In this document: piece after piece, positions 6,689 to 58,730 of the stretch
Layout of the letters: every line of letters starts with the position of its first letter
Numbering within the stretch: position 1 is the stretch's first letter
Source: a bacterium
GTDB lineage: Bacteria > CAYTYR01 > UBA6262
Reading direction: 5' to 3'
Assembly (NCBI GenBank): GCA_028712895.1
Contig: JAQTPL010000006.1
Coordinates: 239 to 64,238 of the forward strand
DNA length: 64,000 bases
Notes under the pieces: model-generated
The model's input: only the letters and a program-made list of their open reading frames with translations
What the model was told of the DNA's origin: nothing
The model's database searches: none
Program-made: the position numbers and the translations under genes

Positions 6689-6735
6689 AAATCCTCCTGC
6701 ATTTATAATAATATTATCCCAAATAACCAGGTATC

Positions 6736-7289: not shown

Positions 7290-7322
7290 ATCATAACCCC
7301 TTTCATATAAAATATATGTATT

Positions 7323-7351: not shown

Positions 7352-7372
7352 GTCTTTTTGTTATCCATAATT

Positions 7373-7414: not shown

Positions 7415-7437
7415 TTAAACTTATTAGTACTATACCG

Positions 7438-7722: not shown

Positions 7723-7754
7723 ACTCCTCCTGAGTTATATTGTATATATGCTTA

Positions 7755-8360
7755 TTAAAAAGATCCGCCTGGACGGCCCATCCCTCCACCCATGCCGCCT
7801 CTCATACCACCCATACCTTCCATACCTTGCCGTCCGCCGCCTTCACGGTTACCCATCTGTTCTCTCATCGCTTCCCTCATGGCCAGTTCTTTCTTCTTTA
7901 AATAGTTAAATAATATGTCCCTTTGTTTTTCTGATAATAACATACGCAGTTTTGCCTTTACCGACATTCTTATTTTGTATTGCTTACCCCACAGTTCGCT
8001 GATCTGGTCGATAAGGGAAGCGACGGCAGCCAGGTCAGGCTGTACAAACTGCCCGTTGACTTTCACCAAGTTCTTGATCGGTATTTTGCTTCTTAAGGTG
8101 CTTTCTTTAGAGGCAATCTCTTCTCCCATGGCCACTGCTTTGGCAATATCGAAGGATAAAGCCTTGAATTCCCCGTTTTGTTGCTCGTTCATTTCCAATT
8201 CCTTGATCAATTTAGCGTCTTTAGCCCACTCAAAATTTAATCCATAATCAGACCACTCTAAATCTTGCCTGGCCATGGATGGCGGCCGTTCAGCCGCAAA
8301 GCACTGAAGAGCACTCAATAAAAAAATAATGCCTAATAACAGCTTACTTTTGCTGAACAT
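7755..8360 (-). CDS. Secreted protein with LSxxQ helix and Gly/Met-rich C-terminal tail
   Basis: 201 aa. Signal peptide MFSKSKLLLGIIFLLSALQCFAA; C-terminus GNREGGGRQGMEGMGGMRGGMGGGMGRPGGSF. No family recognised. Confidence 0.6.
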   Translation of the reverse strand: MFSKSKLLLGIIFLLSALQCFAAERPPSMARQDLEWSDYGLNFEWAKDAKLIKELEMNEQQNGEFKALSFDIAKAVAMGEEIASKESTLRSKIPIKNLVKVNGQFVQPDLAAVASLIDQISELWGKQYKIRMSVKAKLRMLLSEKQRDILFNYLKKKELAMREAMREQMGNREGGGRQGMEGMGGMRGGMGGGMGRPGGSF

Positions 8361-10343: not shown

Positions 10344-11341
10344 TGTCTTGTATTCCTGTTTGTCTGATTCCGTTGGCTCCTCTGGCCTGGCCGGGTTGGC
10401 ATAAAAGGATTACCACTAGTGGCTTTCTGGGTAGCTGGCATATAGGTCGCGCTTTGTATAACCACCCTATCAGTATCAGTGAGCCCGGAAATAATTTCAG
10501 TATTAGTGTCATCAGCTAAACCGGTTTGAATGCGGCGCTGCCCCGGTTTCTGCTCTTTACCCTGGTCAATGAGGACATATTTCCCTTCTTTGTCTTGCTT
10601 GATTGCTTCCAAAGGTAAAGTCAACACATTCTCGTGACTGGCTTCCAAAACTTTTACTTCAGCAGTCATACCGGAACGGAATTCTGCCGGCACTCTATCC
10701 GGTAAGACATCTACTTTATAGATACTGACGTTACTGACTACCTGTGATTCATAATAAATATGGTTCACCGTGCCATTCACTTTGATATCTGGATAAGCAT
10801 CCAGAGTAATTGTCGCCGGTTGTCCCATCTTAATCTTGCCAATATCAGTCTCATCAAACTGGGCTTGCACGATCAGCCGGTCAGAAAGTACCAGTATCGC
10901 TTCGCTGGTCATAATCGTCTGTCCCGGCTCGACACTTTTGACGATCACTTCCCCGTCGATCGGCGCGATCAAGGGAGTTGACTTATAAACTTCTTGCCAC
11001 TGTTTGACAACTTCATCTCCCTGGGCTCGGGCGGCATCTAATAATGCCGCTCTTTCGGTCGAGCTCATCCAAGCGAGGGTTTGTCCTTTTTTTACCCGGT
11101 CACCTTCCTGCACCAGGATGTTTTCTACTCGCCCGCTGATCGCCGGTTTTACTTCCAGTCGATTTTGCGGCAAGACCGTCCCGGTGGTAGATACGAATGT
11201 TTGGATGTTGTCGTATACCGGATTAACGATGGTAGTTTTTTCCAGACTGTCCTTATTGTTCCCGGCTTTTACGGCCCAGAATATAGCGGCAATCACCACT
11301 AATATGCCTAATACTATGAGTTTCCATTTTTTACTCTTCAT
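10340..11341 (-). CDS. macA: Periplasmic adaptor (HlyD/MacA family)
   Basis: 333 aa. N-terminal TM anchor, lipoyl/beta-barrel pattern (VKPAISGRVENILVQEGDRVKKGQTLA). Overlaps macB (ATGA-type) and the OMF gene. Confidence 0.85.
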   Translation of the reverse strand: MKSKKWKLIVLGILVVIAAIFWAVKAGNNKDSLEKTTIVNPVYDNIQTFVSTTGTVLPQNRLEVKPAISGRVENILVQEGDRVKKGQTLAWMSSTERAALLDAARAQGDEVVKQWQEVYKSTPLIAPIDGEVIVKSVEPGQTIMTSEAILVLSDRLIVQAQFDETDIGKIKMGQPATITLDAYPDIKVNGTVNHIYYESQVVSNVSIYKVDVLPDRVPAEFRSGMTAEVKVLEASHENVLTLPLEAIKQDKEGKYVLIDQGKEQKPGQRRIQTGLADDTNTEIISGLTDTDRVVIQSATYMPATQKATSGNPFMPTRPGQRSQRNQTNRNTRQ

Positions 11342-39476: not shown

Positions 39477-40421
39477 TTATCCTTTTCTAGCTAATACTTT
39501 TTTAGCTGCAGCAACAATATCAATATCTTTTAAATGGAAAAAACGCATCAGCTCTTCCGGAGCGCCTGAGGTCCCAAAGGTATCATTCACTCCAATCATT
39601 TCCAGCGGCACCGGATAATTTTTTACGACTACTTCACTCACGGCACTGCCCAGTCCGCCATAAATCTGATGCTCCTCAGCGGTAACGATGGCTTTTGTTT
39701 CCCGGGCAGCCTGAATAATTATTTTTTCATCCAGAGGTTTTAAACTATGTATATTGATAACTCTAGCTTTGATATTTTCCTTTTCGAGTAATAAGGCGGC
39801 TTGTAATGATTCCGCCACCAGGCTGCCGCAGGCAATGATCGTTACGTCCTGTCCTTCTTTCATCAGTAATCCCTCTCCCGAAATAAATTTAGTTTCCGGA
39901 GTGGTGAGCACAGGGACAGGTTCCCGGCCCAATCTAATATAAACCGGGCCCTTCATCTCGGCTGCAGCCAGAGTCGCTTTCTTAGCTTCGAAAAAGTCAC
40001 AGGGTACAAATACGGTTAAATTCGGCAAAATCCTGGTTAAAGCAAATTCTTCCAAAGCCTGGTGACTGGCGCCATCAGGCCCGGTCAGTATCCCGCCGTG
40101 CGATCCGCCTATCTTCACATTAAGATTGCTATAACAAATCGTGGTACGCAGTTGCTCCCAGGCCCGCCCGCTGGCAAAAATAGAATAGGTGCTGGCAAAA
40201 GGGATCTTGCCGGTAAGACTCAGCCCGGCAGCTAAGCCCAAGAGGTTTTGTTCCGCTATACCGACATTGAAAAACCTTTCGGGAAATTTCTTTTTAAAAA
40301 GTTCGCTGGATGTGGAACGGCTTAAATCCGCATCAAGCACGACAATATTTTTGTTGGTAGCGCCCATTTCTATTAAAGCCTCTGAATAGCCATACCTGGT
40401 TGCTTTCTTCTCCATTTGCAC
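39477..40421 (-). CDS. Transketolase, C-terminal (pyrimidine-binding) subunit
   Basis: 314 aa, GTG start. [18 protein letters not shown]...[19 protein letters not shown] pattern. Confidence 0.9.
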
Positions 40422-40434
40422 TCCTATAAAAATA

Positions 40435-40521
40435 GTCCTCGAGTCTTCGAGTCTGGCTTAAATATTATAATTAAAACAATTCTTTGGACCCGCGGACTCG
40501 TGACCCGGGACCCGCAGACTG
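40435..40521. repeat. Intercistronic word hairpin (GTCNNCGA / GACCCG words) between the two transketolase genes
   Basis: Left arm GTCCTCGA GTCTTCGA GTCTGG (40435-40456); AT-rich centre AATATTATAATTAAAAC; right arm GGACCCGC GGACTCGT GACCCGG GACCCGC AGACTG (40486-40521) abutting the tktN stop. CGAGTC/GACTCG and GGTC/GACC pair. Confidence 0.65.
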
Positions 40522-41331
40522 TTACTCTAGTTCCTTGAGGGCTTGGGCCGTTAATTCCTTATTTGGCGCTTTACCATGCCACTCTTCCCGGTCTTCCATG
40601 AAACTTACACCTTTACCTTTTACTGTACGCGCGATGATCGCGGTTGGTTTTTCTTTGGTCTTAGCGGCTGTGGCATAAGCTTCCAGTATCTGTTTAAAAT
40701 CATGCCCTTCTATTTCTATGGTCTGCCAGCCAAAAGCTTTAAATTTATCCACGATCGGATAGACATTCATTACATCTTTGATCCTGCCGTCAATTTGCAG
40801 GTCATTATTATCAACGATACAGCAAAGGTTATCCAACCGATAATGACCAGCGCTCATCGCGGCTTCCCAAATTTGTCCTTCCTGCAGCTCCCCATCTCCG
40901 ACCAGGCAATAGACCCGAACATCACTCTGATCAAGCTTAGCCCCCAGTGCTATCCCAGTCGCTACCGATAGCCCCATGCCTAATGAACCAGTGGATACTT
41001 CTACCCCGGCCAGGTCCTGGCAACTAGGATGTCCTTGTAAACAACTGCCAAGCTTGCGCAAAGTTAAAAGTTGTTCCAGCGGGAAATACCCTAATTCAGC
41101 CAGGCAGGCATATAAGACCGGGGCACAATGCCCCTTGGAAAGAATAAAACGGTCCCGGCCCGGCCAGCGAGGGGCTTGCGGCTGTTGCCGCAGGATATTA
41201 AAAAATAAAGCGGTCATCAGGTCGGTGGCTGAAAGTGACCCACCGGGATGACCGCTGCCTGCTGCCCCCAGCATTTTTATTATATCCTGTCTGATCTTCT
41301 TAGCTTGATCCTTTAATTGTGCTATCTCCAA
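40522..41331 (-). CDS. Transketolase, N-terminal (TPP-binding) subunit
   Basis: 269 aa, TTG start behind GGGGG. GSGHPGGSLS...LSKGH...VGDGELQEGQIWEA TPP motif. Confidence 0.9.
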   Translation of the reverse strand: MEIAQLKDQAKKIRQDIIKMLGAAGSGHPGGSLSATDLMTALFFNILRQQPQAPRWPGRDRFILSKGHCAPVLYACLAELGYFPLEQLLTLRKLGSCLQGHPSCQDLAGVEVSTGSLGMGLSVATGIALGAKLDQSDVRVYCLVGDGELQEGQIWEAAMSAGHYRLDNLCCIVDNNDLQIDGRIKDVMNVYPIVDKFKAFGWQTIEIEGHDFKQILEAYATAAKTKEKPTAIIARTVKGKGVSFMEDREEWHGKAPNKELTAQALKELE

Positions 41332-41503: not shown

Positions 41504-41869
41504 TTAGCCCAGGATCTTCTTCACGCGATCCATTAATTCCTGCGGATGAAAAGGCTTGACGATATAATCCATCGCCCCTAATTCCAGGCTTTTAGCGACA
41601 TCACCTTCCTGCCCGAGCGCGCTTAACATAACCACGGGTATCTGCCTGGTGCTTTCATTTTCCTTTAATCTTCTGGTGGCCTCATTACCATCGATCACCG
41701 GCATCATGATATCCATCAAAATGAGATCTGGGTTTTCCTGGATCGCCAGTTTAACCCCTGCTTCTCCTTCATTAGCGCTGACTACGGTGAAAGCGTTCTT
41801 CTCCAGCAAATACCGCACCATTTTTACCACGCCAGGTTCATCATCAACGATCAAAACCTTTTTGCTCAT
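41504..41869 (-). CDS. Stand-alone receiver-domain response regulator (CheY-like)
   Basis: 121 aa. KVLIVDDEP...PDLILMDIMMPVIDG...VVMLSA...YIVKPF. Confidence 0.9.
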   Translation of the reverse strand: MSKKVLIVDDEPGVVKMVRYLLEKNAFTVVSANEGEAGVKLAIQENPDLILMDIMMPVIDGNEATRRLKENESTRQIPVVMLSALGQEGDVAKSLELGAMDYIVKPFHPQELMDRVKKILG

Positions 41870-41887
41870 AATCTCACTCCTGTTTAT

Positions 41888-43894
41888 TTAGTTTTTTGGC
41901 AAAGTGAAAATGAATTTTGCCCCATTTCTGTTTCTTTTATCCCAGCTGAAAACCTCTTTATCCATAACCGGGCTTTCAACCCAGATCTTACCCCCGTGCA
42001 ACTCAACCAGCAGCTTGGAGATGGCCAAACCCAAGCCTGTCCCTATCACATGTTCAGCTTTGGCTTTAGCGGACCGGTAAAAACGGCCAAACATGTAGGG
42101 CAAGTCTTTCTCTTCTATACCGTAACCATTATCGATCACCTGCACTTCCAGGAATTTCCCAGTGTCTTTAAAGCCTATGATCACTTCTCCCTGATCAGGA
42201 GTATACTTAATGGCGTTGGTCAGTAAGTTAGTCAGGATTTGGGTCAGCTGGTTCTCATCAGCCAGGATAGCAGCCAATGGTTCTGCCGGAGGCAGGACAG
42301 TTACCCGTAATTTTTTCTCAATGATGGCCAGGCGCAGATTATGCAAAACCCCATGCACTGTTTTTTCAAGGTCCAACGGCGCTTTTTTCAATTCCACTTT
42401 GCCGGCTTCTATTTTAGACAGGTTTAATAAATTATTTATCAAATCTACCAGGCGTCTGGTATTCTGGCTAATGATCTCCATGAATTCTTTCTGGGTGGCA
42501 TTCAAAACCCCGGGTTCGCCCTGCACCAGCAGGTCGGTAAACCCCAGGATACTGGTCAATGGCGAACGCATTTCATGGCTGACCATGGCGATGAAGTCAC
42601 TTTTTGCCTGGCTTAACTCTACTAATTTCTCATTAGCCTTTTTTAAATGTTCATTAGCCCGGGCCAGATCACCGGTAGCAATATTGACCTTTTCTTCCAG
42701 GTTTTTGCTGAATTGCTGCGTCTGCTCATAAAGTTGCGCATTCTGCAGCACTACGGCCAACTGCCGGGCAAAAGCCATCAGGAAGTCAACCCTGTCCGGT
42801 GGGAAAGCTGCCCGGTTACTTGAGTTGATATTTAATACTCCTAATTTGCGGTCACCGATCAGGAGCGGGATATTGACCATAACCGCAATTTTTTCCTGGC
42901 TTAAAAGAGCGGCCAGGCTACTTTCAGCCTGATTAAAATCACGGATCACTAAGGGTTCATTATACAGCAGAGCTTTTTGCGCCATGTCTTCCAATAAGAC
43001 AATGCCGTTAGCATTGACAAAAGCAGTGGATAAGCCTTGGGTGCTGCGCATTTTAAAAAGCCCATCATCACCAACCAGGAAAATACTGCATGAAGACCCT
43101 TGCAGTTTCTCTATACTCATAGCCATGACCAGGTCAATGATCAAGGTAATATCCAAAGCCGCGGTCACCGCCCGCGACATTTCGAATAATAAGGTCAACT
43201 GTTGCTGGTTTTCCTCAACCTGGGAAATCATCTGGTTAAACTGCGCCGCCAGATACCCCAACTCATCATTTCCTAATTTTTCTACCCGGGTAGACAGGTC
43301 ACCGTTCTGTACCCGGCGCATAGCCTGCAATATTTTCCCGATACGGTTAAAGATCATCTGCTCGGAAACAATGAACATCACCAGGCCCAGCAATATGATC
43401 CCCAGGATAACGACCAGGAAGAGCACTTGTTTGACACTAGTCGTTAGCTCATCAGCTACCCGGTTAAGAGAATACCAGATCTTAATCGTTCCGGTGCGCT
43501 CGCTTTTATAATATATTGGGATCTGTACTTCTAGGGCCCCGTTAAAATTCTCATCTTTTTTATTGCTATGGATAATCGGTTTATTTTTTACATCGGAGAG
43601 CAGAATATAGAGAACATCCTTATCACTGCTGATCTCCTGTACATAGCGTTTAAGAATAGCCATATCTGATTCTTTAATTCCCTGGCGACTGACCTTAGCC
43701 AGGAAACTGGCATAATTCTTGCTTTTTTTACTGATATCGTCAGTGACTACCTGCCTGACCTGGTTGACCATAATAAACCCGATCAACATCATCAGTGGTA
43801 TTAAAACCAGCATCAAGGCAGCGACAAACTTAAAGCCCAGGGTAAACCTGATTTTTGACCTAACCTTTATATTCGTTTCATTATGCATGATCAC
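41888..43894 (-). CDS. Sensor histidine kinase (2 TM + HAMP + GAF + HisKA + HATPase)
   Basis: 668 aa. HAMP (RRVQNGDLSTRVE), GAF-like middle, H-box MVSHEMRSPLTSI, N/G boxes NLLTNAIKYTP, DNGYGIE, GTGLGLAISK. Confidence 0.9.
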   Translation of the reverse strand: MIMHNETNIKVRSKIRFTLGFKFVAALMLVLIPLMMLIGFIMVNQVRQVVTDDISKKSKNYASFLAKVSRQGIKESDMAILKRYVQEISSDKDVLYILLSDVKNKPIIHSNKKDENFNGALEVQIPIYYKSERTGTIKIWYSLNRVADELTTSVKQVLFLVVILGIILLGLVMFIVSEQMIFNRIGKILQAMRRVQNGDLSTRVEKLGNDELGYLAAQFNQMISQVEENQQQLTLLFEMSRAVTAALDITLIIDLVMAMSIEKLQGSSCSIFLVGDDGLFKMRSTQGLSTAFVNANGIVLLEDMAQKALLYNEPLVIRDFNQAESSLAALLSQEKIAVMVNIPLLIGDRKLGVLNINSSNRAAFPPDRVDFLMAFARQLAVVLQNAQLYEQTQQFSKNLEEKVNIATGDLARANEHLKKANEKLVELSQAKSDFIAMVSHEMRSPLTSILGFTDLLVQGEPGVLNATQKEFMEIISQNTRRLVDLINNLLNLSKIEAGKVELKKAPLDLEKTVHGVLHNLRLAIIEKKLRVTVLPPAEPLAAILADENQLTQILTNLLTNAIKYTPDQGEVIIGFKDTGKFLEVQVIDNGYGIEEKDLPYMFGRFYRSAKAKAEHVIGTGLGLAISKLLVELHGGKIWVESPVMDKEVFSWDKRNRNGAKFIFTLPKN

Positions 43895-44692: not shown

Positions 44693-46528
44693 TTATTTCT
44701 TTAAAAAGGCAAAATCGAGTACCATGTTCAAGTATTTGTATTGCTTGGGTACGCTTTCAAAGGAGATGTATTGCATGGGTATTTTTTCTTTATCGAATAC
44801 ACTATGGATAGAACGGACAAATTCTCCTTCGATCAAATTATTAGATGGCGGCGGCCCCATCCAGATTACCAGATCAATTCCCTGGCTGCGGCACAAATCT
44901 ACCATTTCGCTAAAATTCAGGTTTGAACTAGGAGCATAAGTCTGGGCAAAAGTTTTATCCAATTTGAATTTGATCTTATGTTTTTTAATGGTCTCGGCAA
45001 AATTCTTGATCATCTGGTCAAGTTCTTTGTCCTTACCGGTAGGATAAATATATCCGGTCCGCAAATTATGGGCATCGTCTCCCCTCCCCGCTGCCGCCGG
45101 CTGTGGAGGAGCCTGTTCTGAAGCAGGTAGCGGTTCCGGCGCAGGAGCTGGCTCTGACTCTATTATAGGCGGTGGTTCCGGCTCTGTTACCGGAGGTTCA
45201 TAGGCTGGTATTTCCGGTTCAACTACCTGTTCCGCTGGTTGTTCAGGAGCAGCGGGAGCTGCCTCAGATGCGCTCACGATCTCCACCGGCTGGGTCGGCT
45301 CAAAAATAATCTCTGTTTTCTCTTCAATGATCTGGGTTAAGCTCTCTTCCAGTGGTGCTAGGGTACTCATTTCTATGCCCGTAGTTTCTTCCGGCAGCAA
45401 GTCTTGCAGTAACTCTTCGGCTAAAGACTTGTTTATTTGCCGGTTAGTCAAAGAAGCGTAAGCCACGATACGGATCAGGAATCCTTCCAATTCGCGGATA
45501 TTTGATTTTAACTGTTCGGCGATAAAATACATTACTTCATCTTCAATCTGTACTTTGGTGCTGTCCGCTTTTGCTTTCAGGATCGCCACCCTGGTTTCCA
45601 AATTCGGCGACTGGATATCGGTGATCAAACCCCATTCAAAACGGGAGCGTAACCGCTCTTCCAATACGGAAATTTTCTTCGGCGGCTTGTCGCTGGCAAT
45701 AACAATCTGTTTATGGTCATCATAAAGAGCATTGAATGTATGATAAAACTCTTCTTGGGCGGCTTCAGCCTCGGATAAAAACTGCACATCATCGATCAGC
45801 AAAACATCTATTTTGCGGTATTTATTCCTGAACTCTATTATTTTGCCGTAACGGATCGCGTCTATTACTTCAGCCATAAACCGTTCAGCAGTAGTGTACA
45901 GTACCTTTGCCGTAGAATCATTTTCCAGCACAAAATGGCCAATGGCCTGCATCAAATGGGTCTTCCCTAATCCGACATCTCCGTACATAAACAGCGGATT
46001 ATATACCTTGCCCGGCATCTCGGCCACGGCCAAAGCAGCAGCCTTGGCAAAGTGATTGCTTTTCCCGACTACAAAAGTATCAAAGGTATAGCGCGGGTTT
46101 AAGCCTATTTCAGAAAACAAAGCTAGTTTCTGTTCTTCGGTCAATACTGGTTTGGTCGCTGTTTCAGCAATGGGAGAAGCAGCAATGGGAGCTGTTCCGG
46201 TAATCTCCCTGTTTATATCTTCATCAATTAAATTGTTTTCCTCTACCGGCGGTAAATATTTGGAAAAATCAAAATTGTCCGGACTTTCCTTAAAATCCTT
46301 CACTATCTCATATATTTTCTCCCGATCATCAACTTCCAGCTGATAGATATAAAATGACCAGTTGTAATCCTTCTCCCGCAAAGAGGTAGTCCTGCCGCAA
46401 CTGTAATTAAGCTTGGTTAGTACATTAGATAATTTAATGCCATCTTCCCTGTCGCCTTGCAGGACTATTTTCCAGCGGCTAGGATAATCAGCAGTAAAGC
46501 TTTCGACAAGGTCCCATTTTGTAATCAT
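44693..46528 (-). CDS. Chimeric protein: novel N-domain + DnaA-type AAA+ (domain III) + Pro/Glu-rich linker + novel C-domain; no DnaA domain IV
   Basis: 611 aa. [15 protein letters not shown], Walker [11 protein letters not shown], Walker [31 protein letters not shown] (DnaA domain III set). Residues ~405-480 are P/E/A-rich. Termini are homologous to ORF 51034..51966. GAGG SD lies before ATG 46528. Confidence 0.85.
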
Positions 46529-46580: not shown

Positions 46581-48032
46581 TCATGTTAATAATGTATCCC
46601 TTCCTTTTTCATATTTTAAAATAAGCTGCCGGCCGGCACGGGCTTCATCGATCCGCCCAACCGGACTGGTCAACGGTGCTTTCTTCAACAGTTCCGGATT
46701 TTGTACTGCTTCTGCCGCAAGCTGTTCCAAGGCTTGAATAAAAGTATCCATGGTTTCCTTAGTCTCGGTTTCTGTCGGTTCTATCATCATGGCCTCATGG
46801 ACAATAAGCGGAAAATAGATCGTCGGTGGATGGAACCCGTAATCAATTATCCTCTTGGCAATATCCAGGGTACTGACTGACCAGGCCTGGTGAGGCGTCA
46901 TGACAAATTCATGCATACAGGTCCGGTGATAAGGAACCGGATAAAACTTTGCCAATTTATGCATTAAATAATTGGCGTTCAGCACGGCCTGACGCCCGAC
47001 CTTGGCTATGCCCTCTGCCCCCAGGGCCAAAAAATAAGCATACGCCCGGACCGCAATCAGGAAATTGCCATAAAAAGAGCGGACTTTGCCGATACTGTTG
47101 GCTTGCCGATACTCCCAAAAATAATTTTTCCCTTTTTTTATAACCTGTGGTACCGGTAAAAACGGGATAAGGTCTTTACTTGTGCCCACTGCTCCGGCAC
47201 CTGGCCCGCCACCGCCATGCGGAGTGGAAAATGTCTTGTGCAGGTTGAAATGCATTACATCAAAACCCAGTTCTGCAGGCTTGACCAATCCTAACAAAGC
47301 ATTAAAGTTCGCGCCGTCGCCATATAATAATGCCCCATTTTTATGGACCAGGTGGCTTATCTCAAGAATATTTTTTTCAAACAATCCCAAAGTATTCGGA
47401 TTTGTTAACATCAACGCGGCAACATCCAGGCCCAGATTCTGCTGCAAATCCTCAAGGTCAATATCACCTTGATTGTCACTCTTCACTTGCCTGACCTGGT
47501 ACCCGGCTAAAGCCGCCGTAGCCGGATTCGTGCCATGAGCGGTATCCGGGACAAGTATCACGTTTCGCTTTTGTTCCGGTTGGTTCTTCTGGTGATATGC
47601 TTTGATGAGCAAAATACCGGTTATTTCCCCATGCGCTCCGGCGGCGGGCTGCAAAGTCATCCCTGAAAATCCGCTGACTTCTTTTAGAAAACTCTCTAGC
47701 TCATAGATTATTTTCAAGGCGCCTTGTACACATTCTTCGGGAGAATAGGGATGGATCCCGGCCAAGCCATCAAAATCAGCTACTGTTTCATTTACCTTAG
47801 GATTATACTTCATAGTGCATGAACCTAAAGGATAAAAACCATTGTCTACGCTATAATTCAATTTGGAGAGAGCCGTAAAATGCCTGATTACATCTTGCTC
47901 ACAGGTTTGAGGTAAAGTTACTTCTTCTGCTCCTAAAAATTCGGCCGGTATATGTTTATTCACCGCTGCCGGATCGGCAGCAGGCACATAACTTGTTGGC
48001 TGTGAATGGTATTCAAAAATCACTTTTTCCAA
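46581..48032 (-). CDS. gcvPB: Glycine dehydrogenase (decarboxylating) subunit 2
   Basis: 483 aa, TTG start behind AGAGG. PLP-lysine region NLHKTFSTPHGGGGPG is typical of GcvPB. Confidence 0.95.
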   Translation of the reverse strand: MEKVIFEYHSQPTSYVPAADPAAVNKHIPAEFLGAEEVTLPQTCEQDVIRHFTALSKLNYSVDNGFYPLGSCTMKYNPKVNETVADFDGLAGIHPYSPEECVQGALKIIYELESFLKEVSGFSGMTLQPAAGAHGEITGILLIKAYHQKNQPEQKRNVILVPDTAHGTNPATAALAGYQVRQVKSDNQGDIDLEDLQQNLGLDVAALMLTNPNTLGLFEKNILEISHLVHKNGALLYGDGANFNALLGLVKPAELGFDVMHFNLHKTFSTPHGGGGPGAGAVGTSKDLIPFLPVPQVIKKGKNYFWEYRQANSIGKVRSFYGNFLIAVRAYAYFLALGAEGIAKVGRQAVLNANYLMHKLAKFYPVPYHRTCMHEFVMTPHQAWSVSTLDIAKRIIDYGFHPPTIYFPLIVHEAMMIEPTETETKETMDTFIQALEQLAAEAVQNPELLKKAPLTSPVGRIDEARAGRQLILKYEKGRDTLLT

Positions 48033-48050
48033 TTAAATAACCTCTTTAAT

Positions 48051-48085
48051 TAGCGTATAGCGTATAGCGTGTAGCGTATAGCGTA
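48051..48085. repeat. One-armed tandem heptamer array (TAGCGTA)x5 between gcvPA and gcvPB
   Basis: TAGCGTA TAGCGTA TAGCGTG TAGCGTA TAGCGTA (+TAGG) in exact 7-nt phase with one substitution. On the mRNA strand this is (UAUACGC)n, ending 5 nt before the AGAGG SD of gcvPB. No inverted partner nearby. Confidence 0.85.
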
Positions 48086-48095
48086 TAGGAAAACA

Positions 48096-49436
48096 CTAAT
48101 TCTTTTCTTTTAAGATACGGACCAGGGTGTCGATCTCGGCTTTGGTTCTTTTTTCAGTGACGCAGAATAATAATGACTTTTTAAGTTCCGGATAATATTT
48201 TTTCAACGGTAAACCGCCGATTATATTTTTTCTTAACAGCTTTTTATTCAAGGCCTCTATATTCCCGGGCGCTGTGGCTACAAATTCATTAAAAAAAGCA
48301 GTTTTAAAATTAATTTTCCAGCCTGGTATCCTGGCTACAGCAGCAGCCAGATAATGGGCTCCGGACAAAGAGGCAGTAGCCACATCTTTTAAGCCGGCAG
48401 CACCCATAGAGGAGAGATAAACACAAGCACTTAACGCGCATAAAGCCTCATTGGAACAGATATTACTGGTAGCTCGTTCACGGGGGATATGCTGTTCCCT
48501 GGTCTGTAAGGTCAGCACATAAGCACGTTGTCCCCTGTTGTCAATACTTTCTCCTACTATCCGTCCAGGCATTTTGCGCATGAATTCCTGGCGGCAGGCA
48601 AAAATTCCCAAGTACGGCCCGCCAAAAGAAACCGGTAGTCCCAATGATTGCCCTTCACCCGTAACGATATCAGCGCCGTATTCTGCCGGTTTTTGTAAAA
48701 CACCCAGGCTAACCGGGTAAATGCTGGTGACAAACAAGGCTCCCTGCTTATGGGCCATGGCCCCCAGCTGCTGGACATGTTCCAGGCAGCCGAAAAAATT
48801 CGGCTGCTGCACAACAACAGCTGCCACCTGGTCATTTAACTGGCTTTTCAAGGCAGCCAGGTCGATCAGACCTTCAATAAAAGGTATTTCCTTAATGCTA
48901 ATCCGTGAATTTTTTAAATATGTATGCACTACCTGGCGGTATTCCGGGTGAATGGCCTTAGCCACCAGGACTATATTCCTCTGGGTATGCTCACAAGCCA
49001 GGTGAATTGCCTCATAAAGCGCCGTGGCGCCATCATAGAGGCTGGCATTAGCTACGTCCATCCCGGTCAGGTTACAGATCATCGTCTGGTATTCAAAGAT
49101 CGATTGCAAGGTGCCTTGGCTTATTTCCGGCTGATAAGGAGTATACGCAGTATAAAATTCCCCCCGTTTGGTAATCACCGGTACAGTGCTGGGAATATAA
49201 TGATCATAAGCACCTGCACCTAAAAAACAGCTAAAGTCGGCTACACTGGCGTTTTGACCGGCTACTTCCCGTAGCTGCTTTTTAACTTCCAACTCACTGC
49301 CAGCAGGTGGTAACGCTAAACAGTGGCGAATGATCTTATCTTGCGGAATATCCTTCAAAAGATCTTCTGTTGAAGCTATGCCTAACGCCTGCAACATATC
49401 CTTATTATCAGCATCGGTATTGCCTATATAGTCCAT
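48096..49436 (-). CDS. gcvPA: Glycine dehydrogenase (decarboxylating) subunit 1
   Basis: 446 aa. FLGAGAYDHYIP...YTPYQPEISQG.LQ..FE.Q pattern of GcvPA. Confidence 0.95.
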   Translation of the reverse strand: MDYIGNTDADNKDMLQALGIASTEDLLKDIPQDKIIRHCLALPPAGSELEVKKQLREVAGQNASVADFSCFLGAGAYDHYIPSTVPVITKRGEFYTAYTPYQPEISQGTLQSIFEYQTMICNLTGMDVANASLYDGATALYEAIHLACEHTQRNIVLVAKAIHPEYRQVVHTYLKNSRISIKEIPFIEGLIDLAALKSQLNDQVAAVVVQQPNFFGCLEHVQQLGAMAHKQGALFVTSIYPVSLGVLQKPAEYGADIVTGEGQSLGLPVSFGGPYLGIFACRQEFMRKMPGRIVGESIDNRGQRAYVLTLQTREQHIPRERATSNICSNEALCALSACVYLSSMGAAGLKDVATASLSGAHYLAAAVARIPGWKINFKTAFFNEFVATAPGNIEALNKKLLRKNIIGGLPLKKYYPELKKSLLFCVTEKRTKAEIDTLVRILKEKN

Positions 49437-49438
49437 AA

Positions 49439-49828
49439 CTACTTAGATCCCTCACTGATTAACTTTTCATATTCTTCCGCGGACAGCAAGCTAGATAATT
49501 CCGTGGGAGCAGCTAAAGCTATTTTAATCATCCAGCCGTTAGTGTATGGTTCTTTATTGACCAATTCAGGCTGCTTGCCCAAAGCCTCATTGACACTGAC
49601 CACCATACCGCTGACCGGACTGAACAGATCACTGACCGCTTTTACGCTTTCAGCCACGCCAAAAGATTCTTGCTGTTTCAATTGTCGTTCTACCTTGGGT
49701 AATTCAACAAAGACGATGTCTCCCAGTTCTTCCTGGGCATAATCAGTAATGCCGATTACTATTGTATTATTGCCCACCGCTTTTACCCATTCATGGGATT
49801 TGCTGTATTTCAAGTCCTTTGGAACCAT
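49439..49828 (-). CDS. gcvH: Glycine cleavage system H protein
   Basis: 129 aa. Lipoyl-lysine context VAESVKAVSDLFSPVSG, N-terminal Y.KSHEWV. Confidence 0.95.
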   Translation of the reverse strand: MVPKDLKYSKSHEWVKAVGNNTIVIGITDYAQEELGDIVFVELPKVERQLKQQESFGVAESVKAVSDLFSPVSGMVVSVNEALGKQPELVNKEPYTNGWMIKIALAAPTELSSLLSAEEYEKLISEGSK

Positions 49829-49844
49829 TAAAACCTCCGGTATT

Positions 49845-49930
49845 AGCTTATTGCTCTTAGCTCATAGGTCGTAGGAAAATCTACTGATTTCTTTTTTTTC
49901 CTGCGAGCTACCAGCTACGAGCTACGAACT
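49845..49930. repeat. Intercistronic heptad-word hairpin, AGCTC family (copy 2)
   Basis: 31-nt arms 49845-49875 (AGCTTAT TGCTCTT AGCTCAT AGGTCGT AGG) and 49900-49930 (..GAGCTAC CAGCTAC GAGCTAC GAACT). 22 Watson-Crick + 2 G.U of 31 by hand. The 24-nt loop carries a T-run. Fills the gcvT-gcvH spacer. Confidence 0.75.
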
Positions 49931-49936
49931 GATTTA

Positions 49937-51037
49937 TTAGTCGCGAACATGGCTGGGGACAAAAGGCGTTTTTACTATTGTTGCCGGATATTTTTCTCCC
50001 CTGATCTCGATATTCAGCTTATTATCTAATGCAGCTTCAGCTAATCTGATATATCCCAGGCAAATACTTTTAGCCAAGGTTGGGGAAAATGTCCCGCTGG
50101 TAACCTGACCTACTATCTTCCCGTCTTGGTTAAAGATATGGAATCCATGGCGAGCGATCTGCCGGCCTTGCATGGTCAGACCAGCCAGCTTGCGTGATAG
50201 CCCGGCCTTTTTTATTTGTTCCAGGCTGGTCTTGCCAATAAAATTATCCTTCTCCAATTTTACTGCCCAGTCCAACCCAGCTTTTAGCGGATTAGTATCC
50301 TGGTCAATATCATTTCCGTACAGGGAATATTTCATTTCCAACCGCAAAATATCCCTGGCTCCCAAACCACAGGGGATGGCTCCCTGGTCAATAATGCTTT
50401 GCCAGATTTTTTCTGTATCTGGCTCCGGTTCAGGCTGGGCAAAATAAAATATTTCATAGCCTAGCTCTCCGGTATATCCGGTACGGGAAATAGTCACTGG
50501 CTTGCCGGCGACCTGCCCCTTAGCAAAATGCAAATAATCCAAAACGGCAATCTCTGGCCCGGCCAGTTTGACCATGATATCCCTGGCGCCAGGACCCTGC
50601 AGCGAAATCAGTGAAGTGCTTTCGGAAATATCATTCAACATCACATCATAAAAACTTTTTTGTTCCATCAGGTACTGGTAATCTTTTTCTGTATTCGCGG
50701 CATTTACCACCAATAGATAATTATGCCGGCTGATCTTATTAATGAACAAGTCGTCCACAATGCCGCCGTGATCATAACACATGAGACTGTAAAGACAATC
50801 TCCCGGCGCCATTACTGACACATCATTGGTCATTACCTGCTGCAGAAATTTTTCCGCCTGGTCACCGATAACGGTGATCTCTCCCATATGACAAATATCA
50901 AAGAGACCGGCTTTTTTCCGTACTGCCCAATACTCATCGATAATACTGCTATATTGCACCGGCATCAACCACCCGCCAAACTCAATCAAGCGGGCTTTAT
51001 GCTGCTGGTGCCAATGATAAAGTTTAGTTTGTTTCAA
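49937..51037 (-). CDS. gcvT: Aminomethyltransferase (glycine cleavage T protein)
   Basis: 366 aa. GGWLMPVQY, AGLFDICHMG, ISRTGYTGELGYEI motifs. Confidence 0.95.
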   Translation of the reverse strand: MKQTKLYHWHQQHKARLIEFGGWLMPVQYSSIIDEYWAVRKKAGLFDICHMGEITVIGDQAEKFLQQVMTNDVSVMAPGDCLYSLMCYDHGGIVDDLFINKISRHNYLLVVNAANTEKDYQYLMEQKSFYDVMLNDISESTSLISLQGPGARDIMVKLAGPEIAVLDYLHFAKGQVAGKPVTISRTGYTGELGYEIFYFAQPEPEPDTEKIWQSIIDQGAIPCGLGARDILRLEMKYSLYGNDIDQDTNPLKAGLDWAVKLEKDNFIGKTSLEQIKKAGLSRKLAGLTMQGRQIARHGFHIFNQDGKIVGQVTSGTFSPTLAKSICLGYIRLAEAALDNKLNIEIRGEKYPATIVKTPFVPSHVRD

Positions 51038-51966
51038 TCCTGGAAATCCCCGATCCCCCGCCCTTTGAATAAGGCGATATCAACGACCACGCTGACAAAT
51101 GTGGTTCTTAAGGCCATTTTACTGAGCGCGATCGCTTTGATCAGCACTTTCCGTTTCTTAGGCATTTTTTTAAGTAACGCCGCCAGGTTTCTAGCCTCAG
51201 GGAAAACCTGGTAATTGGGAATAAAAATCAAAAACGCTTCAATATTAAATCCCTGGTAAATTTCTACCAGATTGGCCAGATCCAACTGGGCCCTGAGAGG
51301 ATAGTTATCATCAAAAACATTTTCCAGGCTGAAAGGATGATGTTTCACTGTTTTTAAAACATCCGTTAATCCGGCGAGAAAAAGGCGGGCATTTTCCTGT
51401 TCTCCTTCGGGATATAAAATGCCAACTTTGACTTCATCTTCCTTCGGCACCAGTAACTCTTCCGGCAAATCTTTTTCCTTTTTCAGATACATCGGCTGGA
51501 TCCGGCCGACTTCCAGGGGAATCGGTTCCTCAGTCTCCTGGCCGGGCATCCTGATATCCCCGGGCAAAACAACATTCTTATGCTTGAGCGCTTCTTTGGC
51601 TTCAGCTTTACTGATCCCGCGATCGGATAAATCCTTGATCACCCCGCCAATTTCCCGGGCCAGGTTATCAGCTCTTTCCGGTGCGCCTGTTTTCTTTTTT
51701 GCCTCTGGTAATTCCTGGGCGTCAGCCACGGAAAGCCGCTTCATGAATTTTTCTACTTCCAACCGGGTTTCTTTACTGGACGTATTCAGATAAAAACCCC
51801 AATTATAATCGCCGCGAGCAGCTTTGAGTTGAAAAGGAGGCTGACAAACTTTCTCAAATTTTCCCACCACCCTAAGAACATCTTCACGATCCCCATTAAT
51901 CGATACCAGGTAGCGGTCCTGGTGTTTGTCGTCAAAATAAGATTCTATTTTCCAGCGGATAATCAT
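51034..51966 (-). CDS. Uncharacterised protein, paralogue of the N- and C-terminal domains of the DnaA-like chimera
   Basis: 310 aa. N-terminus MIIRWKIESYF..RYLVSINGDREDVLRV...GDYNWGFYL aligns with [27 protein letters not shown]...KDYNWSFYI. The C-terminal ~120 aa also align. Start overlaps the pilT stop (TAATG); stop overlaps the gcvT start (ATGA). Confidence 0.75.
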   Translation of the reverse strand: MIIRWKIESYFDDKHQDRYLVSINGDREDVLRVVGKFEKVCQPPFQLKAARGDYNWGFYLNTSSKETRLEVEKFMKRLSVADAQELPEAKKKTGAPERADNLAREIGGVIKDLSDRGISKAEAKEALKHKNVVLPGDIRMPGQETEEPIPLEVGRIQPMYLKKEKDLPEELLVPKEDEVKVGILYPEGEQENARLFLAGLTDVLKTVKHHPFSLENVFDDNYPLRAQLDLANLVEIYQGFNIEAFLIFIPNYQVFPEARNLAALLKKMPKKRKVLIKAIALSKMALRTTFVSVVVDIALFKGRGIGDFQD

Positions 51967-53075
51967 TATTTATCCCTCTTGCTTTGGTTATTATTTTCAT
52001 CAACTCCGGTGTAAATACCCCGAACGCTCAACATGAGTTCATCCGGATTAGTAGCATTATCCAGAGCATCTTCCAGGGAGATCTTCCCTTCTTTGTACAA
52101 ATTTAAAAGCGACAGATCAAATGATTGCATGCCGTAAAAAGCTCCCTGTTGCATAGCGGTATAAATACCGGCATCCTTGCCTTCGGCAATCAATTTTCTG
52201 ACAAAAGGGGTAACTGTCAGGATCTCGATGGCCGGGATCCGGCCTTCCTGATCGACCCGCGGGATCAGACGCTGCGCAATAATACCACGCAGGATCTGGC
52301 TGAGCGTCATTCTGATCTGGGTTTGCTGATGCGGAGAATACATATCAACAATACGGTTGACGGTATGGACAGCATCGATAGTGTGAACCGTGGAAATAAC
52401 CAAGTGCCCGGTTTCTCCCCCCATAATAGCGGCATTGACTGTTTCAAAATCTCTCATTTCCCCGATCACGATGACATCCGGGTCCTGGCGCAAGACATGT
52501 TTCAGCGCCTGGCCGAAAGACTTGGTATCGCTGCCCACTTCCCGCTGGCTGACCGTGCTCATTTTATCATTATGATAAAACTCAACGGGATCCTCGATCG
52601 TAATAATATTAGAGCGGCGGGTGGAATTAATAAAATCGATCATAGTGTTTAGGGTAGTAGTTTTACCGGCACCGGTAATCCCGGCAATCAAAATAAGACC
52701 GCGGTTATGGCTGGTTATTTTACGCATCGTTTCGCTGGGCAGGTTTAATTCTTCAAAGGTTTTAGGCGAGGGAGGAATAACCCGCAAACTTAACGCGATC
52801 CCGCCTTTTTGCCGGTATAAGTTGACCCGAAAACGAGATACTCCCTCTACTTCGTAGCCAAGGTCTAGTTCATCATCTTTCTCGAATTTTTTTTGTTGTT
52901 TCTCATTCATCAGGTTATAGGCCAGCTGTTCGATATTCTCGCTGGTTAAAGGACTGGATTCAGCAGCCATTAGTTTACCATTAAACCGCAGCATAGGAGG
53001 ACTGCCTGCTTTGAAGTGAATATCTGAGATACTGCGTTTGACCATCAGTTGCAAGAGATCGTCAACATTCATCAT
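51966..53075 (-). CDS. pilT: PilT-family type IV pilus retraction ATPase
   Basis: 369 aa. GLILIAGITGAGKTTT (Walker A), IITIEDPVEF, DPDVIVIGEMRD (Walker B/Asp box), GHLVISTVHT (His box). Confidence 0.9.
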   Translation of the reverse strand: MMNVDDLLQLMVKRSISDIHFKAGSPPMLRFNGKLMAAESSPLTSENIEQLAYNLMNEKQQKKFEKDDELDLGYEVEGVSRFRVNLYRQKGGIALSLRVIPPSPKTFEELNLPSETMRKITSHNRGLILIAGITGAGKTTTLNTMIDFINSTRRSNIITIEDPVEFYHNDKMSTVSQREVGSDTKSFGQALKHVLRQDPDVIVIGEMRDFETVNAAIMGGETGHLVISTVHTIDAVHTVNRIVDMYSPHQQTQIRMTLSQILRGIIAQRLIPRVDQEGRIPAIEILTVTPFVRKLIAEGKDAGIYTAMQQGAFYGMQSFDLSLLNLYKEGKISLEDALDNATNPDELMLSVRGIYTGVDENNNQSKRDK

Positions 53076-53321: not shown

Positions 53322-53996
53322 CTATCTCTTTTTATCTCCGGAAACAAGATCAACAGCATGACTGGTGCCGATCCGGGTAGCACCGGCTTCCATCAGGATA
53401 TAAGCTTGCTCGGCAGTATCGATCCCACCACTAGCCTTAACACCCATTTCTATGCCCACTACCTGGCGGATCAGCTTAATGTCATCAACTGTCGCCCCGC
53501 TGTTACTAAAACCCGTGGAAGTTTTAATAAAATTAACACCCTGCATGCAGGCAATCTCGCAAGCCTTAATTTTTTCTTCTTTACTAAGCAGACAGGTCTC
53601 CAGTATCACTTTCAGCACATGACCGCTGGTAACGTTGCGTACCATTTTTATTTCTTCATCTATGATCTCAGGTTCATTCGATTTAAGAGCGCCGATATTC
53701 AAAACCATATCGATTTCATCAGCACCGCTCAGTAATGCGTTACGGGCTTCAATGCTCTTGATCGTGGAGGTGCTGGCACCCAGCGGGAAACCGATCACGG
53801 CTGTAACTTTAATACCGCTCCCATGCAATAGTTTTACCGCGAGTGGCACATAACTTGGATTAACACAAACTGTAGCAAAACGGTACTTTATAGCCTCCTG
53901 GCAAGCGCGTTCAATATCAGCACTTGTGGCCTCAGGTTTTAATACAGCATAATCAATAATTTGCGCTAATTTTTGGTCAAAATCCATAGCCAACAC
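53322..53996 (-). CDS. deoC: Deoxyribose-phosphate aldolase
   Basis: 224 aa. IDYAVLKPEAT..., VCVNP, FIKTSTGF (Schiff-base Lys context), VKASGGI. Confidence 0.93.
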   Translation of the reverse strand: MLAMDFDQKLAQIIDYAVLKPEATSADIERACQEAIKYRFATVCVNPSYVPLAVKLLHGSGIKVTAVIGFPLGASTSTIKSIEARNALLSGADEIDMVLNIGALKSNEPEIIDEEIKMVRNVTSGHVLKVILETCLLSKEEKIKACEIACMQGVNFIKTSTGFSNSGATVDDIKLIRQVVGIEMGVKASGGIDTAEQAYILMEAGATRIGTSHAVDLVSGDKKR

Positions 53997-54002
53997 CAGT
54001 TA

Positions 54003-54452
54003 TTATTCCTTCATATATTTTTTCTCGATCGCAGTTATCTTATCGATGCGACGCATATGCCGGTCCCGGCCAAAAGGGGTTTCCAGCCAAGCTTTGATCA
54101 TTTGTTCCATATCTGATTCACTGGTTAAACCGCTTAAGCAAAGCACATTAGCCTGGTTATGTTCGCTCGCTAACCTGGCTTGGTCTGCCTGGCAGCAAAG
54201 AGCAGCCCGGATCCTAGGTACCTTATTGGCGGCAATGCACATGCCAATACCTGTTTTACACAGTAATACTCCCCTGGCGGCCTTCCCTTGCGATATGTCC
54301 TCGGCTACCCGTAAAGCGATATCAGGATAATCAACACTATCCTTAGTATTGGTGCCCAGATCTTTAACTTCATGGCCGAGCTGAGTTAAAAAATCCTTAA
54401 TTTTTTCTTTCAGCTCCACGCCGCCATGATCGCTGCCTATGGCGATGATCAT
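54003..54452 (-). CDS. rpiB: Ribose-5-phosphate isomerase B
   Basis: 149 aa. IAIGSDHGG.ELK, G.LLCKTGIGMCIAANK, EHN.ANVL.L. Confidence 0.93.
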   Translation of the reverse strand: MIIAIGSDHGGVELKEKIKDFLTQLGHEVKDLGTNTKDSVDYPDIALRVAEDISQGKAARGVLLCKTGIGMCIAANKVPRIRAALCCQADQARLASEHNQANVLCLSGLTSESDMEQMIKAWLETPFGRDRHMRRIDKITAIEKKYMKE

Positions 54453-54465
54453 TGTTTACCTCGGA

Positions 54466-55221
54466 TTATAGGTCAAAAGTAACTATTTTGCTGAATGACT
54501 CGGGTTCCAGGCTGGCTCCGCCGACTAAGGCCCCATCTATATCCGCCTGTCCCATAAGTTCTTTGCTATTCTCCGGTTTAACGCTGCCGCCATACAAGAT
54601 CCTGATCTCTTCAGCTACAGCCGGAGCATATATTTCTGCTAATTTTTGGCGGATAAACTTGTGCGCTTCCTCAGCCTGCTGCGGAGTGGCTGTTTTGCCG
54701 GTACCGATAGCCCATACTGGCTCATAAGCAACCACTAATTTCCTAGCCTCTTCAGCGCTTAAGCCGCTGGCACCTTCACGGATCTGGCGTTCCAATACTG
54801 TGAAAGTCTCACTGCTTTCCCTTTCAGCCAGTGTTTCCCCGATACAAACAATGGGTAATAGTCCTGACAGGAAAGCTTTTTTCATTTTTTTATTGACCGT
54901 GGCATCAGTCTCGCCAAAGTATTGCCGGCGTTCAGAATGCCCAATGATCACATAGGTACAGCCGGTATCTCTCAGCATCCCCGGGGCAATCTCCCCGGTA
55001 AAAGCGCCTTTGTCTTCCCAATACATATTTTGGGCGCCTAATTTCAGGTTGGAGCCCTTCATGGATTCAGCCGCAATAGCTAAACTGGTAAAGGGCGGAC
55101 AGACTACCACTTCCCGGTCACTCAGCTTCCCTACCCGGCTGGCTAAACCTTCAACCAGGGCTTTAGCCTCCTGGGTATTTTTGTACATTTTCCAATTACC
55201 TGCAAGGATGGGTTTACGCAA
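54466..55221 (-). CDS. tpiA: Triosephosphate isomerase
   Basis: 251 aa. AGNWKMY, IIGHSERR, AYEPVWAIGTG, YGGSV. Confidence 0.95.
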   Translation of the reverse strand: MRKPILAGNWKMYKNTQEAKALVEGLASRVGKLSDREVVVCPPFTSLAIAAESMKGSNLKLGAQNMYWEDKGAFTGEIAPGMLRDTGCTYVIIGHSERRQYFGETDATVNKKMKKAFLSGLLPIVCIGETLAERESSETFTVLERQIREGASGLSAEEARKLVVAYEPVWAIGTGKTATPQQAEEAHKFIRQKLAEIYAPAVAEEIRILYGGSVKPENSKELMGQADIDGALVGGASLEPESFSKIVTFDL

Positions 55222-58101: not shown

Positions 58102-58175
58102 TGGCGCCAACGGGACTCGAACCCGTAAGCTCTGCCTTGAGAGGGCAGCGTCCTAACCAATTAGACGATGGCGCC
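58102..58175 (-). tRNA. tRNA-Glu (anticodon CUC)
   Basis: Hand-folded cloverleaf: GGCGCCA/UGGCGCC acceptor, GUCU/GGAC D-stem, CUGCC-CUCUCAA-GGCAG anticodon arm, ACGGG-UUCGAGU-CCCGU T-arm. 74 nt; CCA not encoded. Confidence 0.85.
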
Positions 58176-58657: not shown

Positions 58658-58730
58658 CTGCCCGGCCTGGACTCGAACCAGGAGACTTCTGCTCCAGAGG
58701 CAGACGTGTTACCAATTACACCACCGGGCA
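58658..58730 (-). tRNA. tRNA-Gln (anticodon CUG)
   Basis: Hand-folded: UGCCCGG/CCGGGCA acceptor, GUGU/ACAC D-stem, UCUGC-CUCUGGA-GCAGA anticodon arm, CCUGG-UUCGAGU-CCAGG T-arm. 73 nt. A 9-bp hairpin (58634-58654) follows 3 nt downstream. Confidence 0.85.

Follow-up and report, generated by a model that had tools for sequence, protein, structure and literature searches.

Can a protein be DnaA when both of its ends belong to something else? This question was raised by a gene on the minus strand (44693..46528) of a bacterial DNA stretch of 64,000 nucleotides (nt; assembly GCA_028712895.1, contig JAQTPL010000006.1, positions 239 to 64,238), hereafter the window. Almost all bacteria are considered to share the four-domain plan of the replication initiator DnaA, and in particular domain IV, which binds DnaA boxes. 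The product of 611 amino acids (aa), which we call the DnaA-like protein, keeps the whole DnaA AAA+ module, and both of its end domains are swapped. We concluded that it is a DnaA-family AAA+ protein of a novel and conserved architecture, found in Elusimicrobiota and allied candidate lineages, and that it is neither Hda nor Argonaute. Tentatively, with a rough probability of 0.45, we read it as an accessory DnaA-family ATPase, anchored through its MID domain, that works beside an ordinary DnaA. The gene and its parts are as follows.

44693..46528, minus strand: the whole DnaA-like gene, 611 aa, ATG start; N-terminal domain (N-domain), linker, AAA+ module, linker, MID-like domain
46265..46528, minus strand: N-terminal alpha/beta domain, residues 1–88, in place of DnaA domain I
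46103..46264, minus strand: linker 1, variable, residues 89–142; 57–85% identity in close relatives, length differing widely in the family
45365..46102, minus strand: DnaA-type AAA+ module (domain IIIa/IIIb), residues 143–388, from Pfam and TIGR00362
45953–45982, minus strand: Walker A, residues 183–192
45776–45805, minus strand: Walker B, residues 242–251
45767..45769, minus strand: Ala254, equivalent of E. coli K243 and B. subtilis K222 (the alignment is ungapped around this position)
45626–45655, minus strand: box VII with the arginine finger, residues 292–301
45476–45505, minus strand: sensor II, residues 342–351
45071..45364, minus strand: linker 2, acidic and Pro/Glu/Ala-rich, residues 389–486; 42–84% identity in close relatives
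44696..45070, minus strand: C-terminal MID-like domain (C-domain), residues 487–611, in place of DnaA domain IV

The central module is that of DnaA. The Pfam family Bac_DnaA matched residues 143–304 (E = 5e-71), and TIGR00362, the NCBI equivalog model for DnaA, scored 372.9 bits against a cutoff of 343.9, with the match covering profile positions 83–349 of 437 only. Because the family lies above this cutoff, pipelines annotate it as 'chromosomal replication initiator protein DnaA'. The module was ~65% identical to domain III of B. subtilis DnaA (PDB 8btg) and ~60–65% identical to canonical DnaAs of other phyla; the protein also matched the Pfam family IstB_IS21 (E = 1.8e-10). An initial annotation of the stretch had described a complete set of DnaA domain III motifs in their proper order. 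All of the motifs it quoted were present, the first of the set at residues 144–158 and the last ending at residue 351.

We then compared individual columns of the module between 89 family members and 28 canonical DnaAs plus that of E. coli. All 89 members kept the Walker A lysine, the Walker B Asp-Asp pair, the sensor I aspartate, the equivalents of R281 and R285 (the latter being the arginine finger) and the sensor II arginine. The AID-2 leucine was likewise invariant in the family, and the equivalent of E. coli V211 was isoleucine, as it is in the canonical DnaAs. The R245 position varied, but it was variable in canonical DnaAs too. In contrast, the equivalent of E. coli K243 was serine or alanine in 88 of the 89 members, and lysine in 28 of 28 canonical DnaAs as well as in E. 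coli. This residue (K222 in B. subtilis) is one that we take to be a contact with the backbone of single-stranded DNA (ssDNA) in the Aquifex and B. subtilis DnaA–ssDNA structures. Thus, the family shares with DnaA a full domain III with its ATPase, arginine-finger and AID-2 residues, whereas a lysine that is canonical in DnaA has been lost.

The ends of the protein differed from DnaA altogether. Neither DnaA_N (PF11638) nor Bac_DnaA_C (PF08299) matched the 611-aa protein in Pfam searches, even at E ≤ 1. Profile–profile comparison gave a probability of 0.4% for the N-domain against DnaA domain I, and hhalign gave 0.5% for the C-domain against DnaA domain IV, whereas a self-comparison control gave 100%. 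The initial annotation's statements that domain I was missing and that residues 380–611 held no helix-turn-helix domain IV were therefore borne out, as was the four-part architecture it proposed, by domain scans and structure models. Lacking the helix-turn-helix domain, the DnaA-like protein is not expected to recognize DnaA boxes; and because domains I and IV, two defining features of DnaA, are missing, it should not be classified among the standard DnaAs. An ATPase module joined to an exchangeable targeting domain is also the plan of Orc1/Cdc6 and DnaC/IstB, which belong to the same AAA+ initiator clade. Those proteins, however, carry a winged helix or a helicase-binding domain for targeting, whereas here the domain is of the MID type and the ATPase sequence is clearly that of DnaA.

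We sought to identify the C-terminal domain from its sequence and its predicted fold. The initial annotation had described a domain of about 120 aa with alternating strands and helices, and an AlphaFold model of the C-terminal 125 residues, built from the family alignment, agreed with this (four beta-alpha units and no helical bundle; predicted local distance difference test score, pLDDT, 88). From this model and from profile matches, the domain is recognizable as a homologue of the Argonaute/PIWI MID domain, Rossmann-like and built of four beta-alpha units. The pAgo and PIWI models of PADLOC matched it in their own MID region (for PprPIWI, positions 329–437 of 666, E = 1e-6); the numbers of members matched were 13, 10 and 9 out of 35, and matches to other families were essentially absent. 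Because these profiles provide sequence evidence independent of the fold, we consider the MID assignment specific. Searches of the C-domain alignment against Pfam returned only noise, and neither the C-domain profile hidden Markov model (HMM) against PDB sequences nor an alignment to the hAGO2 MID sequence gave anything significant. The domain is rare, with 108 representatives among 1.84 billion proteins, and it lay at the C-terminus in all of them.

The N-terminal 88 residues were modeled from the family alignment at a pLDDT of 94, with the order beta-beta-alpha-beta-beta-beta-alpha; this is a generic two-layer alpha/beta domain. Six of 34 sequences in the N-domain alignment had marginal PADLOC matches to Cas2 (E about 0.01–0.04), which probably reflect a shared ferredoxin-like fold only. 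Both end domains had been called unrecognized by the initial annotation; their lack of resemblance to DnaA stands, but the C-domain can be recognized as an Argonaute-type MID. Between the AAA+ module and this domain, linker 2 contained 22 proline, 19 glutamate and 16 alanine residues among its 98, in agreement with the acidic, Pro/Glu/Ala-rich segment described earlier.

The ligand of a MID domain is either a nucleotide or a strand end of a nucleic acid, and such domains are otherwise known from Argonaute and PIWI proteins, many of which act in defense. Hence a defense role, in which a MID sensor of Argonaute origin would be linked to an AAA+ effector, or alternatively a phage or plasmid replication protein, had to be considered, especially as the only PADLOC matches were to pAgo and PIWI models. 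In Argonaute and PIWI proteins (e.g., MIWI 4p1z, hAGO2 3lud and 7c6b, Aquifex Ago 1yvu), however, MID is accompanied by PIWI, PAZ and N/L1/L2 parts, all of which are absent from the DnaA-like protein: Pfam's Piwi family did not match it, the MID-like domain ends the protein, and no effector domain was found. In this family MID instead forms the C-terminal end of either an AAA+ ATPase or a small protein with the N-domain. No defense-system model matched the AAA+ module or the small paralogue described below, and the C-domain was not found on 2.9 million viral contigs. The gene belongs to a vertically conserved array of housekeeping character across the phylum, lies on the leading strand, resembles its flanking windows in composition and is under very strong purifying selection, unlike typical defense islands. 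We therefore regard a defense or mobile-element origin as very unlikely.

Next, we asked how widely the four parts occur together. A search with the full-length protein listed, among its matches, at least about 90 protein clusters of 440–725 aa that contained Bac_DnaA without PF11638 or PF08299; most of these full-length matches were named 'DnaA' and came from metagenome-assembled genomes (MAGs) of Elusimicrobia, Elusimicrobiota or Endomicrobiia. Canonical DnaAs (~445 aa) appeared in the same search only below ~356 bits. When a member from Endomicrobiales was the query, all 120 matches listed had the four-part architecture; the protein clusters that share it, drawn from NCBI, JGI, ENA and Logan, number more than 200. 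In a scan of one genome per GTDB species, the C-domain was found in 76 species, nearly all labeled Elusimicrobia, Elusimicrobiota or Endomicrobiia, with a few labeled 'Clostridia', 'bacterium' or 'Ignavibacteria'; the family gene was single-copy in 75 of these 76 genomes. N-domain, AAA+ module and C-domain lay in one open reading frame (ORF) at the family loci. Many carrier MAGs have been deposited as 'Clostridia bacterium', 'bacterium' or 'Ignavibacteria bacterium' (e.g., L006, L008, L015, L018–L020, L023, L037), and because their gene order equals that of Elusimicrobia-labeled MAGs, such bin labels are probably unreliable. The closest named relative of the window is 'Elusimicrobia bacterium UBA6262'.

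This distribution bears on a trivial explanation, namely that a truncated dnaA had been joined to an unrelated ORF through the Pro-rich segment by a frameshift or a chimeric gene model. Errors of assembly and gene calling are common in Pro-rich segments of low complexity, and the initial annotation had itself named a frameshift or assembly join among the findings that would undo its claim. Both linkers differ strongly in length and sequence across the family, whereas the flanking domains are conserved, and the architecture was continuous in 76 independent species genomes and in more than 200 clusters. Because the same architecture recurs around very different linkers, there is no frameshift or assembly join, and we give virtually no credence to an artefact.

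Sequence identities among close relatives were 90–100% for the AAA+ module and 76–97% for the MID-like domain, compared with 74–89% for GcvPB and 61–87% for GcvT, which are encoded nearby, and 42–85% for the linkers. These levels indicated that both structured modules are under very strong purifying selection. Linker 2 has also gained inserts in places. In one subfamily (P0019–P0026; P0035 is without it) it holds a zinc-ribbon-like CxxC...CxxC insert, CLTCGQNLTYVEKYDRWYCHNCKKY, and the loci of P0019–P0026 and P0035 are L015, L016, L018, L020, L023, L033 and L052. In P0018 the same linker contains a Glu/Lys-rich, coiled-coil-like insert of ~200 aa.

More distant forms were also recovered. One Elusimicrobia subgroup has a faster-evolving AAA+ module, 40–45% identical to the query, and no fused N-domain; in one example the equivalent of R281 was asparagine, and a MID-like-domain protein was encoded just upstream. 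NCBI names these proteins only 'DnaA ATPase domain-containing protein'. The homology search with this subgroup was partly swamped by low-complexity linker words, and only 304 of 8000 candidates were significant, so that its list tells little about canonical DnaAs. Other distant proteins (644–1187 aa) had a long N-terminal extension, a diverged Bac_DnaA module and then the same C-domain. In addition, locus L011 (UBA6262, contig DJVG01000044.1) carries at 9536–10402 an ORF of 288 aa that over its last 125 aa shares 66% identity with the MID-like domain of the query; its N-terminal part is unrelated, and it has neither the AAA+ module nor the N-domain. As L011 comes from the same bin as the full-length member L007, this ORF is either a third architecture or the product of a mixed bin. 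Among the canonical DnaAs, P0087 (557 aa) and P0091 (486 aa) had the N-terminal part of domain III doubled (NPKYTFD...LFIYGG twice), and these duplications resemble errors made in assembling the source data or in calling its genes. P0094, a candidate for a canonical DnaA of Elusimicrobia under a wrong label, was rejected, as its locus is a genuine origin region from Bacillota.

Hda/HdaA, a regulator rather than an initiator, is a precedent for AAA+ proteins of the DnaA family in which domains I and IV are missing. On this model the DnaA-like protein would bind the sliding clamp and, as a negative regulator, promote the hydrolysis of ATP by DnaA. It does have the arginine finger needed by Hda, and there were weak matches to Hda_lid and TIGR03420. 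The TIGR03420 score, however, was 112.6 bits against a cutoff of 194.8, compared with the 372.9 bits of the DnaA model, and the AAA+ module is far closer to DnaA than is that of Hda itself. The clamp motif QL[SPD]L[PF]L was absent from the query and was found in 0 of 89 members when a regular expression was run over their first 60 residues. Moreover, Hda consists of domain III only (~230–250 aa), whereas the DnaA-like protein has 611 aa and two additional conserved domains. An Hda-like function is thus quite unlikely.

The 'DnaA/Hda family proteins' of Gemmatimonadaceae (P0306, P0310, P0312) were rejected as members of the family, since they have two tandem AAA+ modules and neither a MID domain nor the N-domain. 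They resemble the DnaA-like protein in having DnaA-type AAA+ modules without domains I and IV and in lying away from oriC, in their case within a cluster of motility and signaling genes; their AAA+ modules are only 31–37% identical to the diverged Elusimicrobia subgroup. In L081 and L082 (10001–12145), the gene stands in a CheA/W/R/B/D cluster beside a Roadblock/LC7 protein and a small Arf/MglA-like GTPase. These proteins show that DnaA ATPases have been recruited to non-initiator roles.

We turned to the genes around the DnaA-like gene, which has gcvPB upstream and a lipoate-protein-ligase-like gene downstream. Farther upstream in the window lie the features listed below.

46581..51037, minus strand: gcvT-gcvH-gcvPA-gcvPB block between the paralogue gene and the DnaA-like gene (from the ORF listing)
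51034..51966, minus strand: paralogue gene, 310 aa, N-domain plus MID-like domain, without the AAA+ module
51966..53075, minus strand: gene for a PilT/PilU-family ATPase (TIGR01420, 444 bits against a cutoff of 319.1, full length)

The paralogue carries both end domains of the DnaA-like protein: the N-domain at residues 1–81 (nt 51724–51966; HMM E = 2e-20) and the MID-like domain at residues 178–302 (nt 51061–51435; HMM E = 1.9e-15). It matched no Pfam or NCBIfam family. The stop codon of pilT abuts the start codon of the paralogue gene (junction TAAATAATG), and the last 4 nt of the paralogue gene are shared with gcvT. There are no further pilus genes near pilT, and deoC, rpiB and tpiA lie upstream of it at 53322–55221.

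The array was conserved well beyond the window. In 39 of the 54 loci with at least 3.5 kb of upstream sequence, pilT preceded the DnaA-like gene in the same orientation (median gap 923 bp), and the genes between the two included no paralogue in 18 of these 39 loci, one in 16 and two in five. The gcv block and the lipoate-ligase neighborhood were confined to the window and loci L005–L010, and in other lineages (e.g., L034, L053, L066) pilT, paralogue and DnaA-like gene were contiguous. Probably, then, the gcv block is a lineage-specific insertion into a conserved array. The gene's position between gcvPB and a lipoate ligase, reported by the initial annotation, is correct for the window, but the linkage is a trait of close relatives. 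In distant members the DnaA-like gene follows rpiB, two hypothetical genes and deoC. In a subgroup of Endomicrobiia, a GGDEF diguanylate cyclase bearing the family N-domain is encoded just upstream of pilT in four or five of 37 loci:

L044, 5362–6795: GGDEF protein with N-domain
L064, 5168–6592: GGDEF protein with N-domain
L001, 6683–8035: GGDEF protein with N-domain
L031, 5470–6756: GGDEF protein with N-domain
L059, 4211–5656: GGDEF protein with N-domain, close by

Because it occurs on the DnaA-like protein, the paralogue and the GGDEF protein, the N-domain is a portable module found on three protein types in one operon. Gene order alone suggests a functional tie to PilT.

We also examined the position of the gene relative to the replication origin. 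Location of dnaA near oriC and dnaN is common, but not universal. The locus views spanned ~20 kb (10 kb on either side of the gene) and say nothing on the rest of each genome. No sign change in GC skew was seen in 34 such loci, nor in the 64-kb window, and the skew was positive on the gene's strand in the window and in nearly all of the 34 loci, which places the gene on the leading strand. Neither the window nor 80 related loci (1.28 Mb, ~20 kb per genome) encoded DnaN, RecF, DciA, or a DnaA domain I or IV. A canonical Bacillota locus, fetched in the same way as a positive control, showed the order rpmH...dnaA-dnaN-recF. That the gene does not sit in a dnaA-dnaN context, as first noted for the window, therefore held for the related loci as well; a dnaA-dnaN or oriC setting is a feature of DnaA that the DnaA-like gene lacks.

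Could the DnaA-like protein nevertheless be the sole chromosomal initiator of its hosts? It would then be a DnaA orthologue in which MID has replaced domain IV and another interaction domain has replaced domain I. To find the origin, the protein would rely on its MID domain, with a nucleotide, a small guide strand or a nucleic-acid end as the ligand, or else on a partner, for instance the N-MID paralogue. Forming the DnaA filament and opening the DNA would remain tasks of the unchanged AAA+ module, and the ATPase-less paralogue, together with the linked PilT and cyclic di-GMP genes, might exert control. Much is consistent with this. Conservation of the AAA+ module is at the level of an orthologue, every ATPase, arginine-finger and AID-2 residue is kept along with the isoleucine at the V211 position, and the gene is the most conserved of its neighborhood, single-copy, and on the leading strand among housekeeping genes. 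Elusimicrobia encode DciA, for which DnaA-dependent helicase loading is expected (10.1101/2022.01.24.477630).

Cultured strains point the other way. Published work reports a dnaA gene in Endomicrobium; that of E. proavitum is intact, and Ca. E. trichonymphae has a pseudogene (PMC4505116, PMC5174739). Among the matches listed from three homology searches and the genome scan, no family member was on a contig of ≥1 Mb, and so the complete genomes of cultured Elusimicrobium and Endomicrobium seem to be without the family. A sole initiator would then require repeated reciprocal losses. Because the family is seemingly absent from cultured strains and present in MAGs of Endomicrobiales and Elusimicrobiales, patchy loss of an accessory gene is simpler than a reciprocal sorting of two initiators. 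The existence of an ATPase-less paralogue with both end domains, in an array with pilT, further suggests that the N-domain and MID have a job of their own, and NCBI does not give the name DnaA to the fast-evolving subgroup. We concluded that a sole initiator is a possible, but doubtful, explanation.

Several of the above observations led us to favor the accessory ATPase. The lysine that contacts ssDNA is serine or alanine in nearly every member; domain I, which would offer contacts of the helicase or DiaA type, is missing; and the gene was never near dnaN, recF, dciA or a GC-skew switch in the loci examined. Each of these counts against a sole initiator as well. The array with pilT and the ATPase-less paralogue is conserved, the N-domain is reused on a GGDEF protein of the same operon, the diverged subgroup evolves fast and has lost the N-domain from the fusion, and DnaA-type AAA+ modules serve as non-initiator paralogues elsewhere, as in Gemmatimonadaceae. 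The DnaA-like protein would accordingly be a regulator, or a specialized loader or organizer, perhaps co-assembling with DnaA, and not a canonical origin-melting initiator. Its ATP-bound AAA+ modules may assemble head-to-tail through the intact arginine finger, as in DnaA, and it would be the tethered MID domain, by binding a nucleotide or a nucleic-acid end, and not DnaA boxes, that determines the position of the assembly. The N-domain may act as a common docking module on the DnaA-like protein, on the ATPase-less paralogue and, in some lineages, on the diguanylate cyclase, and the paralogue would be a likely competitor or adaptor for the same sites.

A number of points weigh against this accessory role. 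Its key assumption is that a canonical dnaA coexists in the carrier genomes, and no Elusimicrobia-labeled canonical DnaA was among the best canonical matches listed, a result that also favors a sole initiator. An AAA+ identity of 60–65%, together with a score above the TIGR00362 cutoff, is unusual for a long-standing paralogue. The argument from patchy loss is indirect, being based on the matches listed and on NCBI bin labels, and the linkage to pilT could be inherited synteny without functional meaning. As for the anchoring domain, Foldseek ranked lumazine synthases nearly equal to MID domains by E-value, and any ligand of the MID domain is putative. Argonautes hold the 5'-phosphate in a Y/R-K-Q-K pocket; a manual secondary-structure alignment suggests that the C-domain has lost the two lysines and has an invariant aspartate at the position of one of them.

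The remainder of the window held few other features of note. At 39477–41331 and 41504–43894 (both minus strand) lie a split transketolase, with separate genes for the N- and C-terminal subunits, and a histidine kinase with its response regulator. The two-component pair is directly downstream of the lipoate-ligase-like gene, and both it and the transketolase genes are co-directional with the DnaA-like gene. Two tRNA genes (58102–58175 and 58658–58730, minus strand) were the sole Rfam matches in the window at the gathering threshold. A patch of low GC content (6158–8360; 0.38 versus about 0.45) is possibly a small acquired island and contains three minus-strand ORFs: a lipoprotein-like ORF (6158–6739), a 120-aa ORF that by eye resembles a PIN-domain/VapC toxin (6736–7098), and a secreted Gly/Met-rich protein (7755–8360).

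In the searchable literature we found no account of a DnaA without domain IV or of a DnaA-MID fusion. The family offers a MID domain that works outside any Argonaute, and its database name, 'chromosomal replication initiator protein DnaA', affects the prediction of origins, and possibly marker-gene analyses, in these lineages. If a normal DnaA coexists with it, the DnaA-like protein would represent a new class of DnaA-family accessory protein, one that might assemble together with the initiator and couple it to a signal from a nucleotide or nucleic-acid end, and perhaps to pilus and cyclic di-GMP signaling. If no normal DnaA coexists, a whole bacterial lineage would recognize its origin by a completely different principle, and this outcome, if true, would overturn the assumed universality of DnaA-box recognition.

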